Shown: positions 19,204-25,995, counted from the first letter of the stretch. The stretch is DNA of 30,562 bases from a virus (IMGVR_UViG_2703718870_000021); one strand, 5' to 3'. The notes: generated by a model not told the origin, from the sequence alone. Numbers and translations are program-made.

Positions 19204-22884
<3,681 letters not shown>

Positions 22885-22910
<26 letters not shown>

Positions 22911-23430
22911 TCAGCAACCCCGGTATCAGTTCATCCAGCGCGGCTGCTTTGTTCATGGCTTTGATGATATCCCGTTTCAGGAAATCAACATGTCGGTTTT
23001 CCAGTTCCGGAAAACGCCGCTGCACCGACAGGGGGATCCCGTCGAGAATACTGGCAATTTCACCTGCGATCCGCGACAGCACGAAAGTACAGAATGCGGT
23101 TTCCACCACTTCAGCGGAGTCTCTGGCATTTTTCAGCTCCTGTGCGTCGGCCTGCGCACGCGTAAGTCGATGGCGTTCGTACTCAATAGTCCCTGGCTGG
23201 AGATCTGTCTCGCTGGCCTGCCGCAGTTCTTCAACTTCCCGGCGCAGCTTTTCGTTCTCAATTTCAGCATCCCTTTCGGCATACCATTTTATGACGGCGG
23301 CAGAGTCATAAAGCACCTCATTACCCTTGCCACCGCCTCGCAGAACGGGCATTCCCTGTTCCTGCCAGTTCTGAATGGTACGGATACTCGCACCGAAAAT
23401 GTCAGCCAGCTGCTTTTTGTTGACTTCCAT
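22885..23430 (-). CDS. Nu1: terminase small subunit Nu1
   Basis: 181-aa ORF MEVNKKQLADIFGASIRTIQNWQEQGMPV... (HTH); lies immediately downstream of cos. Confidence 0.95.
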
Positions 23431-23640
23431 TGTTCATTCCACGGACAAAAACAGAGAAAGGAAACGACAGAGGCCAAAAAGCTCGCTTTCAGCACCTGTC
23501 GTTTCCTTTCTTTTCAGAGGGTATTTTAAATAAAAACATTAAGTTATGACGAAGAAGAACGGAAACGCCTTAAACCGGAAAATTTTCATAAATAGCGAAA
23601 ACCCGCGAGGTCGCCGCCCCGTAACCTGTCGGATCGCCGG
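23431..23640. other. cos: cos packaging site: cosB between Nu1 and cosN; cosN cohesive-end sequence at 23608-23619; cosQ-side flank to 23640
   Basis: plus strand aggtcgccgccc at 23608-23619 is the reverse complement of the lambda 12-nt cohesive end GGGCGGCGACCT; flanking CGCGGGTTTTCGCTATTTATGAAAATT and CCGACAGGTTACG match what I recall of the lambda genome termini. Confidence 0.85.
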
Positions 23641-23655
23641 AAAGGACCCGCAAAA

Positions 23656-23670
23656 TGATAATAATTATCA
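23656..23670. promoter_or_regulatory. perfect 7-1-7 palindrome TGATAATAATTATCA (Fur-box-like)
   Basis: 15-nt palindrome seen directly; matches the TGATAATnATTATCA Fur operator consensus; function unproven. Confidence 0.35.
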
Positions 23671-23818
23671 TCTACATGTCACAACGTGCATCTACGCCAT
23701 CAAACCACGTCAAATAATCAATTATGACGCAGGTATCGTATTAATTGATCTGCATCAACTTAACGTAAAAACAACTTCAGACAATACAAATCAGCGACAC
23801 TGAATACGGGGCAACCTC

Positions 23819-24013
23819 ATGTCAACGAAGAACAGAACCCGCAGAACAACAACCCGCAACATCCGCTTTCCTAACCAAATGATTGAACAAATTAACATCG
23901 CTCTTGAGCAAAAAGGGTCTGGGAATTTCTCAGCCTGGGTCATTGAAGCCTGCCGTCGGAGACTAACGTCAGAAAAGAGAGCATATACATCAATCCAAAG
24001 TGATGATGGATGA
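23819..24013 (+). CDS. ylcI: small DUF3950/YlcI-like protein, predicted ribbon-helix-helix fold
   Basis: 64-aa ORF MSTKNRTRRTTTRNIRFPNQMIEQINIALEQKGSGNFSAWVIEACRRRL...; beta-strand (NIRFP) then two helices pattern typical of Arc/CopG-type RHH proteins; recognised as near-identical to YlcI of prophage DLP12. Confidence 0.7.
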   Translation: MSTKNRTRRTTTRNIRFPNQMIEQINIALEQKGSGNFSAWVIEACRRRLTSEKRAYTSIQSDDG

Positions 24014-24373
24014 ACATCCCGGTTTCTTCCACCATCGCACCGGAAAAGCGACTATGAGGGTAACCCTGCGTCTGTCAGCACAGTAAAACCCGGTGTGCAT
24101 CGTTTTTGATTATTCCCGCACACTCACGCAGAAGGAATTCCCCGTCGGGCTACGGTCATGGTTAATGCGGGAATACGGCGACGATACAGCGCAGCTAAAA
24201 GGGTAATGGACAGATAGAGCGGTTTATTTCATTCCACAGGATTCTGAGTGCCCCCCCTCCTCCAATAGGCTGAGCATCCACCTATATAGTTTTAATTTTC
24301 ATCAATCCATTTAACTATCGTTTAATTGTTGTCACATAGGATTCTGCCGTTTTTAACAATGCAGGATAATAAG

Positions 24374-24667
24374 ATGAAAAAAATGTTGTTTTCTGCCGCT
24401 CTGGCAATGCTTATTACAGGATGTGCTCAACAGACGTTTACTGTTGGAAACAAACCGACAGCAGTAACACCAAAGGAAACCATCACCCATCATTTCTTCG
24501 TTTCGGGAATTGGACAGGAGAAAACTGTTGATGCAGCCAAAATTTGTGGCGGCGCAGAAAATGTTGTTAAAACAGAAACCCAGCAAACATTCGTAAATGG
24601 ATTTCTCGGTTTTATTACTTTAGGCATTTATACTCCGCTGGAAGCGCGTGTGTATTGCTCACAATAA
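24374..24667 (+). CDS. bor: Bor lipoprotein (serum-resistance-associated)
   Basis: 97-aa product MKKMLFSAALAMLITGCAQQTFTV... with lipobox LITGC; recognised as near-identical to lambda Bor; ORF track extends upstream to 24326. Confidence 0.9.
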   Translation: MKKMLFSAALAMLITGCAQQTFTVGNKPTAVTPKETITHHFFVSGIGQEKTVDAAKICGGAENVVKTETQQTFVNGFLGFITLGIYTPLEARVYCSQ

Positions 24668-24698
24668 TTGCATGAGTTGCCCATCGATATGGGCAGCT

Positions 24699-25160
24699 CT
24701 ATCTGCACTGCTCATTAATATACTTCTGGGTTCCTTCCAGTTGTTTTTGCATAGTGATCAGCCTCTCTCTGAGGGTGAAATAATCCCGTTCAGCGGTGTC
24801 TGCCAGTCGGGGGGAGGCTGCATTATCCACGCCGGAGGCGGTGGTGGCTTCACGCACTGACTGACAGACTGCTTTGATGTGCAACCGACGACGACCAGCG
24901 GCAACATCATCACGCAGAGCATCATTTTCAGCTTTCGCATCAGCTAACTCCTTCGTGTATTTTGCATTGAGCGCAGCAACATCACGCTGACGCATCTGCA
25001 TGTCAGTAATTGCCGCGTTCGCCAGCTTCAGTTCTCTGGCATTTTTGTCGCGCTGGGCTTTGTAGGTAATGGCGTTATCACGGTAATGATTAACAGCCCA
25101 TGACAGGCAGACGATGATGCAGATAACCAGAGCGGAGATAATCGCGGTTACTCTGTTCAT
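24699..25160 (-). CDS. Rz: spanin inner-membrane subunit Rz
   Basis: [44 protein letters not shown]... matches lambda Rz; ATG overlaps the R stop (ATGA). Confidence 0.9.
24758..24940 (-). CDS. Rz1: spanin outer-membrane lipoprotein Rz1, embedded in the +1 frame of Rz
   Basis: 60-aa [41 protein letters not shown]... with lipobox and proline-rich segment. Confidence 0.85.
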
Positions 25161-25654
25161 TGCTGACCCCACAAACAGATTTCACGCTCAATCTCACGAC
25201 GAGTCATGAGACCTTTCCATTGCTTACCGCCAGCATATGTCCAGCGACGTAGCTGATCACATGCGCCTTTGATATCGCCCTGGTTTATTTTGCGAAGAAG
25301 CGTCGATGTTCTGAAATTGCCAGCACCCACGTTGTAAACGAATGAGTAAAGAGCGCCGCGCATTGTTTCCGGTATATCGACTTTGATGTACGGGTTAATT
25401 TGTCTGGCGACCGTGGCAAGGTCTTTATTCAGGAGGGCTTTGCATTCTGCTTTGGTATACGTTTTACCGAGCATGATGTCTTTTCCTGTATGCCCGTGAC
25501 ATACAGTCCATACACCAACAATATCTTTGTATGGTATGTAGCTGACACCTTCCAGACCATCGTTACCACTTGGGCCAGTGATTAACACTGATGCTATAGC
25601 AATTGCTCCGCCACCAATAGCAGCAGCAACGGCTTTTCGTAATGATGGAGGCAT
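25157..25654 (-). CDS. R: SAR endolysin (T4-lysozyme-type muramidase, phage 21 R-like)
   Basis: 165-aa ORF; N-terminal Gly/Ala-rich weakly hydrophobic segment [20 protein letters not shown] (signal-anchor-release type) then lysozyme-like domain; not the lambda R transglycosylase. Confidence 0.9.
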
Positions 25655-25869
25655 TATTCACCTCTCGCAGCCTTGCGCTTATCTTCTTTAATCTTGAAAT
25701 AAAGGTTTGTCAGGTACGTCAGCAGGCCAAATACCAGGCTACCCAGCACACCTATTGCTGCCCACTGTGAGGGCGTGACTTTATCGAGCAGCTGTAAAAA
25801 CCAGTAACCGGCACTACCTGCTGAGGTGCCATAGGCGACACCCGTTGTTAACTTATCCATGGATTTCAT
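25654..25869 (-). CDS. S: class II pinholin (phage 21 S-like) with dual-start motif
   Basis: starts [28 protein letters not shown]... (Met1 antiholin, Met4 holin); two TMDs; GAGGTG SD before the ATG at 25869; the ORF track extends 15 codons upstream. Confidence 0.9.
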
Positions 25870-25995
25870 AACCCCACCTCGCAGACAAAGCGGGTGTAAA
25901 TTGAGGGAATACAACGTATCGCAAAAAAGCAGAAACGTAACAGACTCGGAGTCAGTGAATAACTCAGGTATTGGGTTATCAGCTAATATCGAGAC

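Follow-up and report, generated by a model that had tools for sequence, protein, structure and literature searches.

The closest described relatives of the gene analysed here are two prophage genes of E. coli K-12, ylcI (b4589, DLP12) and ynfO (b4533, Qin). A literature search retrieved no publication on the function of the YlcI/YnfO family, and ynfO still appears on the list of uncharacterised genes in a 2024 survey (PMC11551758). Binding data are nevertheless available for the DNA upstream of both genes, where the sites have been credited to the packaging pseudogenes nohA and nohB (=nohD). Fur shifts the nohA site in a gel assay in vitro, and among the predicted Fur clusters of K-12 the nohB copy ranks third in strength (PMC2189734). 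FNR yields ChIP-chip peaks and an EMSA shift at ylcI/nohB and nohA/ynfO, where the FNR box is identical to that of the viral DNA analysed here, and the sole reporter built, in the nohA orientation, was nearly silent (PMC1802558). In the tables and excerpts available from a ChIP-seq study (PMC3688515), the K-12 copies show FNR peaks in all data sets (Tables S5, S6 and S9), their FNR box has a PWM score of 16.68, above all other scores in the excerpts of the table, ylcI is estimated by the authors to be the target of the divergent pair, nohA/ynfO is grouped with operons that are also Fur-repressed, and deletion of fnr left the expression of the K-12 copies unchanged in glucose minimal medium (Table S9). 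Finally, ylcI is listed among the convergently overlapping transcripts (ybcW-ylcI) detected in half or more of the RNA-seq samples from K-12 (PMC12288877).

The viral DNA analysed here (IMGVR_UViG_2703718870_000021; 30,562 nt, hereafter the window) represents the late region of a lambda-like phage in the inverted, prophage-type gene order, with the tail and head genes on the minus strand. The small ORF reported by the first-pass annotation was found exactly in the indicated place, with an ATG start and a 64-aa product, MSTKNRTRRTTTRNIRFPNQMIEQINIALEQKGSGNFSAWVIEACRRRLTSEKRAYTSIQSDDG. This product is 97% identical to K-12 YlcI, which also comprises 64 aa and differs only in the last residues, while YnfO shares with it all of the first 49 residues. 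The ORF is a real prophage gene, strongly conserved, and belongs to the YlcI/YnfO (DUF3950) family of uncharacterised proteins, a relationship that had escaped the first-pass annotation, as had the presence of a copy in lambda itself. As the family is already annotated, the existence of the gene is not new. We infer that its product acts as a dimeric, DNA-binding ribbon-helix-helix (RHH) regulator, probably a repressor, which the prophage would make from a promoter that depends on FNR and may be modulated by Fur; we moderately favour this reading over the alternatives discussed below.

A conserved gene between cos and the lysis genes

The features of the region are collected in Table 1. Alignment with the right ends of phages lambda and 434, which starts at position 23620 of the window, sets the cohesive end and places the ATG 199 bp from the right end of the virion DNA. 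The gene is therefore cos-proximal, as had been proposed, and reads away from cos. Its orientation opposite to the late operon and identical to that of bor was likewise borne out by the strands of Nu1, gpA and Bor. Over the 1.3 kb that surround the ORF, phages Turner and PhiR11_1 show 100% identity to the window, and the right end of phage 434 shows 99.4%. The opposite-strand placement between the lysis and packaging genes recurs in lambda, 434, DLP12, Qin and BP-4795.

Table 1. Annotated and predicted features around the YlcI/YnfO-family gene (window coordinates).
Feature	Position	Strand	Description
gpA	20985..22910	-	
Nu1	22885..23430	-	
cosN cohesive end	23608..23619		12 nt, AGGTCGCCGCCC (complement of lambda GGGCGGCGACCT), read from the sequence
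cosQ	23643..23649	-	GGGTCCT, annotation transferred from phage 434 record OL657226
Promoter-like site	23682..23655	-	GTGACA-16-TATCAT, from promoter scan; overlaps the Fur box and points to cos and Nu1
Perfect Fur box	23656..23670		7-1-7 palindrome TGATAATAATTATCA; centre 156 bp upstream of the ATG
Perfect FNR box	23745..23758		TTGATCTGCATCAA; centre 67.5 bp upstream of the ATG; unique in the window, 0.05 expected
Candidate -10 hexamer	23780..23785	+	GACAAT, inferred from spacing, 21 bp past the FNR box
Weak Shine-Dalgarno	23808..23811	+	GGGG, 7 nt 5' of the ATG; annotated as ribosome-binding site in phage 434
YlcI/YnfO-family (DUF3950) gene	23819..24013	+	64 aa
Conserved RHH core (predicted)	23852..23968	+	residues 12-50, from alignments and AF2 models
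Bor	24374..24667	+	
Lysis genes	24699..25914	-	

The profile searches identified the family with confidence: the product scores 72.8 bits against Pfam PF13132 (DUF3950; cut-off 25) and 37.6 bits against NCBIfam NF041551 (YlcI_YnfO_N; cut-off 30), and matches PHROG 949, labelled 'unknown function', with E = 2e-35. It exhibits the family core motif I-R-F-P ... N-F-S-A-W-V-x-E/D-A-C within a protein of about 50-80 aa. Among 119 aligned sequences R16, F37, S38, V41 and A44 are invariant, and I15, F17, P18, N36, W40 and C45 are conserved in at least 90%. Lambda's own copy (complement 48115..48303 of J02459) is 97% identical to the ORF; no feature covers it in the reference record J02459, and newer records call it hypothetical or YlcI/YnfO. 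Of 5426 complete E. coli genomes, 3942 contain DNA of the ORF together with its upstream region, and a single genome may carry as many as 12 copies. A gene absent from the classic lambda annotation is thus carried by phage lambda and by about three quarters of complete E. coli genomes.

An ORF of 64 codons might occur by chance, but the family scores and the codon pattern show that this one is more than a chance product. Selection was assessed over the first 49 codons by comparison of lambda-type copies with copies in unrelated flanking DNA (BP-4795 and Lys8385Vzw), which gave pN/pS values of 0.06-0.17, with pS of 0.5-0.7 (synonymous sites near saturation) and pN of 0.04-0.09; against phage Lys8385Vzw, 24 of the 28 differences fall at third codon positions (4, 0 and 24 by position). 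An antisense ORF (23791..23943), whose wobble positions are in common with those of the gene, was rejected because stops interrupt its frame in two divergent copies. Past approximately residue 50 the C-terminal tails of the YlcI, YnfO, BP-4795 and Lys8385Vzw types are unrelated, which points to the N-terminal 50 residues as the functional unit.

The family is small, comprising 141 clusters at 50% identity among 1.8 billion representatives, many of these clusters being error-laden copies of lambda control DNA, and is confined to Enterobacterales and Pasteurellaceae, across which intact homologues of 35-60% identity occur. Copies with 97% identity were also retrieved from contigs of ~3.5 kb or 48.5 kb assigned to unrelated taxa (e.g. 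Streptomyces, Cohnella, Pedobacter and Enterococcus; L020-L049), together with many 103-110-aa 'proteins' from 3.5 kb ENA contigs. Such copies look like lambda control DNA that contaminates assemblies, such as the 3.6 kb nanopore control amplicon. A tblastn match in Pasteurella phage Pmp7, antisense to an annotated repressor gene, was set aside.

Downstream of the ORF, bor follows as the next same-strand gene after 361 bp, and DUF1398 is absent from the window; a 37-aa ORF at 24093..24206 is without any family match. In lambda and DLP12 a ybcW-like gene and a DUF1398 (ybcV-like) gene sit between the RHH ORF and bor (L005 395-1750 for lambda), while the corresponding interval of the window (24014-24373) and phage 434 have neither. 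The junctions of the region without ybcW and ybcV, compared between the window and lambda, have a CCGGTTTCTTCC-like sequence in common. A perfect 10-nt inverted repeat (24111-24120 and 24166-24175; TATTCCCGCA and TGCGGGAATA) precedes bor, and its lambda counterpart (TATTCCCGGA and TCCGGGAATA) carries a compensatory difference; the repeat matched no Rfam family and its fold z-scores were only -1.0 and -1.35, and an Rfam scan of 23300-24800 returned zero RNA families. On the other side of the gene, an 85-aa ORF (23546-23803, plus strand) spans cosN and matches PHROG 9395 (E = 1e-26); in phage Turner it carries the label of a hypothetical protein. It probably represents a spurious gene family, possible only on circular or prophage DNA.

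Predicted fold and DNA contacts

The RHH fold had been proposed from a basic N-terminus, a short β-strand and two helices. The basic N-terminus is present (K4, R6, R8, R9 and R13), and the two helices agree with those predicted by AF2 at residues 19-32 and 37-60. The predicted RHH core consists of a ribbon strand T12-P18 (T-R-N-I-R-F-P), helix A (19-32), a turn N36-F37-S38 and the early part of helix B. The AF2 monomer shows an extended segment at 12-18 followed by the two helices with a short turn between them, a layout consistent with RHH but predicted with a pLDDT of only 69-70 from 21 as well as from 119 aligned sequences, i.e. the larger alignment did not raise the confidence.

The remote similarities point in the same direction. 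Of 21 family members, 8 match phrog_497 (HicB-like, the RHH part; best E = 8e-5) and 3 match phrog_228 (Arc-like repressor; best E = 7e-4), while a single member matches Pfam RHH_6 (E = 0.09). No significant PDB relative was found by single sequence or profile: the profile search of the PDB yielded, as its only RHH protein, a weak match to CdbA (E = 0.25), and matches to ribosomal protein L16 and pAgo were dismissed as chance. The Foldseek list contains mostly Arc, NikR, ParD, MazE9, NikA, HicB, TacA and plant TCP domains, all with E > 0.8, and a search of a viral structure library with the 119-sequence AF2 model returned only noise. In hhalign the segment T-R-N-I-R-F-P falls on Q-F-N-L-R-W-P of Arc, so that N14, R16 and P18 correspond to Arc N11, R13 and P15, with a P-value of only 0.016. 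Thus, several independent, individually weak lines agree on the fold and none of them is statistically decisive; membership of the superfamily is supported by the predicted structure and the weak profile similarity, and we regard the RHH fold as very probable. No RHH assignment of the YlcI/YnfO family was found in the literature searched.

A mode of action may be proposed on this basis. Two chains would pair their N-terminal strands (residues 12-18) into an antiparallel ribbon inserted into the DNA major groove, where T12, N14 and R16 would read the bases, the latter two being the counterparts of Arc N11 and R13, which are base-contacting residues in the Arc complex. The backbone would be gripped by the basic arm (K4, R6, R8 and R9) and by the N-terminus of helix B with its invariant N36-F37-S38, whereas the lineage-variable tail past approximately residue 50 would probably be dispensable. 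The working mode would then resemble that of Arc, Mnt and CopG-type repressors.

Upstream DNA and expression in the prophage

The 'Fur-like site' mentioned by the first-pass annotation proved to be a genuine Fur box that occurs only once in the window, where chance would give 0 matches. Both the Fur and FNR boxes are identical in the DNA upstream of K-12 ylcI and ynfO, and the whole region is nearly identical to the window; the binding of FNR and Fur is that of the K-12 copies. From the spacing between the FNR box and the -10-like hexamer we predict a class II FNR promoter for the ORF, in which transcription would start near position 23792 and the FNR box would be centred at about -41.5. The generic promoter scan found no consensus sigma-70 promoter with a -35 element on the plus strand, and a missing -35 element is as expected for class II FNR promoters. 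The promoter would likely be activator-dependent, with the Fur box farther upstream, and would drive transcription away from cos and antisense to the late transcript. The protein would accordingly be expected in lysogens under anaerobic, possibly iron-limited, gut-like conditions.

Expression in the lysogen had been suggested from the orientation alone. To this can be added the binding of FNR and Fur to the K-12 copies and the listing of the ylcI transcript, which make prophage expression plausible. Such expression would probably depend on anaerobiosis and may depend on iron; the unchanged expression after fnr deletion in glucose minimal medium stands on the other side. A proposal that the FNR/Fur sites 'at nohA/nohB' serve a ylcI/ynfO-type gene was not found in the literature searched. 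The RHH assignment would provide a plausible target gene for these sites, and leads to the testable hypothesis of a prophage regulator turned on by low oxygen and possibly by low iron.

A search for an operator upstream of the ORF was unsuccessful. The best pair of 12-mers upstream of the ORF agrees in 10 of 12 positions (p = 0.64 against shuffled sequence), and the region upstream of the BP-4795-type copy is no richer in operator-like repeats (p = 0.96); in the absence of a significant upstream repeat in these phage-type copies, autoregulation is unsupported here. Several individual candidates were rejected: a 13-nt inverted repeat (23717-29/23737-49) and ACGT-core motifs were not significant, a 9-mer common to the upstream region of a Salmonella homologue has ~0.5 occurrences expected by chance, and a CATCTAC direct repeat is not conserved in lambda.

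Satellite relatives, alternative readings and known systems

The regulator role is argued by analogy with homologues located at the primase-operon promoters of satellites. Of 39 divergent homologues from different species, 22 adjoin a P4-type primase and/or an integrase, and 15 adjoin both. The homologue's gene is found on the opposite strand between the primase operon and the integrase, divergent from the former, an arrangement as expected for P4/PICI-like satellites. The 150 bp upstream of the DUF3950 genes were inspected for repeats in loci L060-L099. One group of satellites carries two or three 12-nt GTG-N6-CAC repeats, at -100 and -77 (23 bp apart), with the third near the -10 sequence TATAGT, and in the group with the KNIRFE sequence GGTAnnTACC palindromes are located around -46 and directly against the ATG. 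The p-values against shuffles are 0.02-0.1 per locus, and the positions are consistent across many loci with differing repeat sequences. The repeat centres differ between groups that differ also in the residues just before I-R-F; this co-variation could reflect reading of operators by the ribbon, and equally common descent or primase iterons. Judged from sequence, a satellite repressor not yet described may use these repeats as operators, or else they are primase iterons. Satellite-type motifs (GGTG-N6-CACC and GTG-N6-CACGTCAA) are not enriched in the window. No report of the YlcI/YnfO family at satellite switch regions was found in the literature searched.

Other homologues link the family with packaging. 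In two satellite proteins (L008 6001-6363 and L012 4714-5103) DUF3950 is fused to the N-terminal HTH domain of a small terminase; the fused HTH is 62-66% identical to BP-4795 TerS and closer to it than to the island's own TerS. The fusion gene is preceded by GTT(T)AACAC repeats, which are similar to GTTAACAT repeats in the cos region of BP-4795 (L017 1790-2100). The satellite switch regions and the terminase-HTH fusions together suggest an undescribed family of mobile-element regulators. In Stx-type phages the gene lies 41 bp from, and divergent to, an HNH-TerS-TerL module unrelated to Nu1/A, so that the position at the junction of lysis and packaging genes is kept across packaging systems. 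At L008 (8040-8881) the integrase gene abuts a 93-aa N-terminal fragment that is, judged by eye, large-terminase-like, and the split TerS of a BP-4795-like prophage lies beside it; this island is apparently inserted in the terminase gene of a prophage. Chromosomal homologues show neighbours of another kind immediately upstream on the same strand, namely genes for cytochrome bd oxidase subunits I and II, a CydDC-like ABC transporter pair and a TonB-dependent receptor (L058 2498-5180; L085 1473-5159; L074 2928-5219; L082 4962-6543), and one homologue has an ImmA-like Peptidase_M78 gene after it. Such surroundings may be an echo of the phage copy's FNR and Fur signals, or a coincidence.

Could the ORF be a non-functional passenger of the conserved cos region? 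In favour of this, the copies of E. coli prophages share 95-100% identity, their flanking cos DNA is nearly identical as well, the ORF has a weak ribosome-binding site, and a consensus promoter is absent. However, the protein is kept in unrelated flanks despite near-saturated synonymous sites and has intact homologues in two bacterial groups, and the selection pattern contradicts the passenger reading, which is largely refuted and retains next to no credibility. Many RHH proteins are antitoxins, and the comparison with antitoxins made in the first-pass annotation gains something from the best remote profile match being to a HicB-like family and from the DUF1398 gene (ydfO type) that Qin, phage Chlobot and locus L057 carry on the same strand, 43-58 bp past the family gene; ynfO-ydfO is even listed as an operon (PMC12218254). 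The comparison finds no support in the window, where no partner gene comes next on the same strand, the position being taken by the distant bor. In lambda and DLP12 the convergent ybcW intervenes, the satellites lack a conserved downstream partner, the C-terminal tail, i.e. the toxin-binding part of RHH antitoxins, is short and not conserved, PADLOC gave zero matches to defence systems, and DUF1398 is not a known toxin. With the partner gene missing from the window and the tail not conserved, a type II antitoxin is very improbable.

Two other readings retain the DNA-binding protein and change its target. As an accessory factor, it would bind near cos and modulate terminase action rather than transcription, e.g. 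by protecting prophage cos against terminase supplied by an induced or superinfecting phage, or by influencing cosQ-dependent termination. The gene is indeed found beside packaging genes in two unrelated systems (lambda Nu1/A and the HNH-TerS-TerL module of BP-4795), and the DUF3950-TerS fusions, with the repeats upstream of the fusion gene, agree with such a role. On the other hand, the HNH gene separates it from cos in BP-4795-type phages, chromosomal homologues have no packaging genes nearby, and a gene antisense to the late operon is not co-expressed with the terminase; to our knowledge, cos mapping has not marked the region as necessary for lambda packaging. We consider this role unlikely, although less so than the others discussed here. 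Alternatively, the phage copy could silence a resident satellite via the operators of the latter, or be a captured satellite gene, with phage promoters not targeted at all. Most of the divergent relatives are satellite genes that sit at the divergent primase-operon promoter with its operator-like repeats, and the phage copies have no upstream repeats of their own, suggesting a target elsewhere. However, the residues preceding the ribbon are T-R-N in phages and T-K-G, Y-K-G or K-K-N in satellites, which makes reading of the same operators unlikely, and the satellite-type operator motif is not above chance in the window. This makes cross-talk distinctly unlikely. Equally speculative is a broader version, in which the cos-proximal RHH protein of lambdoid phages would be the phage relative of an unrecognised P4/PICI-like satellite switch repressor and would mediate phage-satellite conflict under FNR/Fur control, either by silencing resident satellites or by acting together with terminase-type HTH domains at cos; if true, phage-satellite conflict would be tuned to the anaerobic, iron-poor conditions of the gut.

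The reading of the product as a prophage-made RHH regulator can finally be compared with known systems. Like the window ORF, ylcI and ynfO are divergent from a Nu1 homologue (nohD and nohA, respectively) across cos. YnfO has its own longer, different tail and a DUF1398 gene downstream, unlike the window ORF, and DLP12, like lambda, carries ybcW and ybcV before bor, which the window lacks. Bor of lambda is encoded on the same strand, antisense to the late operon, within the same lysis-cos module; it is an outer-membrane lipoprotein whose expression in lysogens is documented, whereas the window gene specifies a cytoplasmic protein with predicted DNA binding. Among the remote profile matches the best is to the C-terminal RHH domain of HicB-type proteins, and ParD, VapB and CopA_SO antitoxins are among the structural neighbours, but in contrast to all of these the window gene lacks a toxin partner, and its product lacks both the HicB N-terminal domain and a conserved tail for toxin binding. 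Arc and Mnt of phage P22 are likewise small and phage-borne, with the β-α-α layout predicted for the window product and a Gly-containing turn before helix B, and Arc has the N-x-R-aromatic-P strand motif in register with the window product, although the sequence similarity is not significant (hhalign P-value for Mnt 0.13, weaker than for Arc). The predicted helix B of the window product is longer than that of either of them, and while Arc and Mnt act at defined operators in their own divergent promoters, the window gene has no operator-like repeat upstream.
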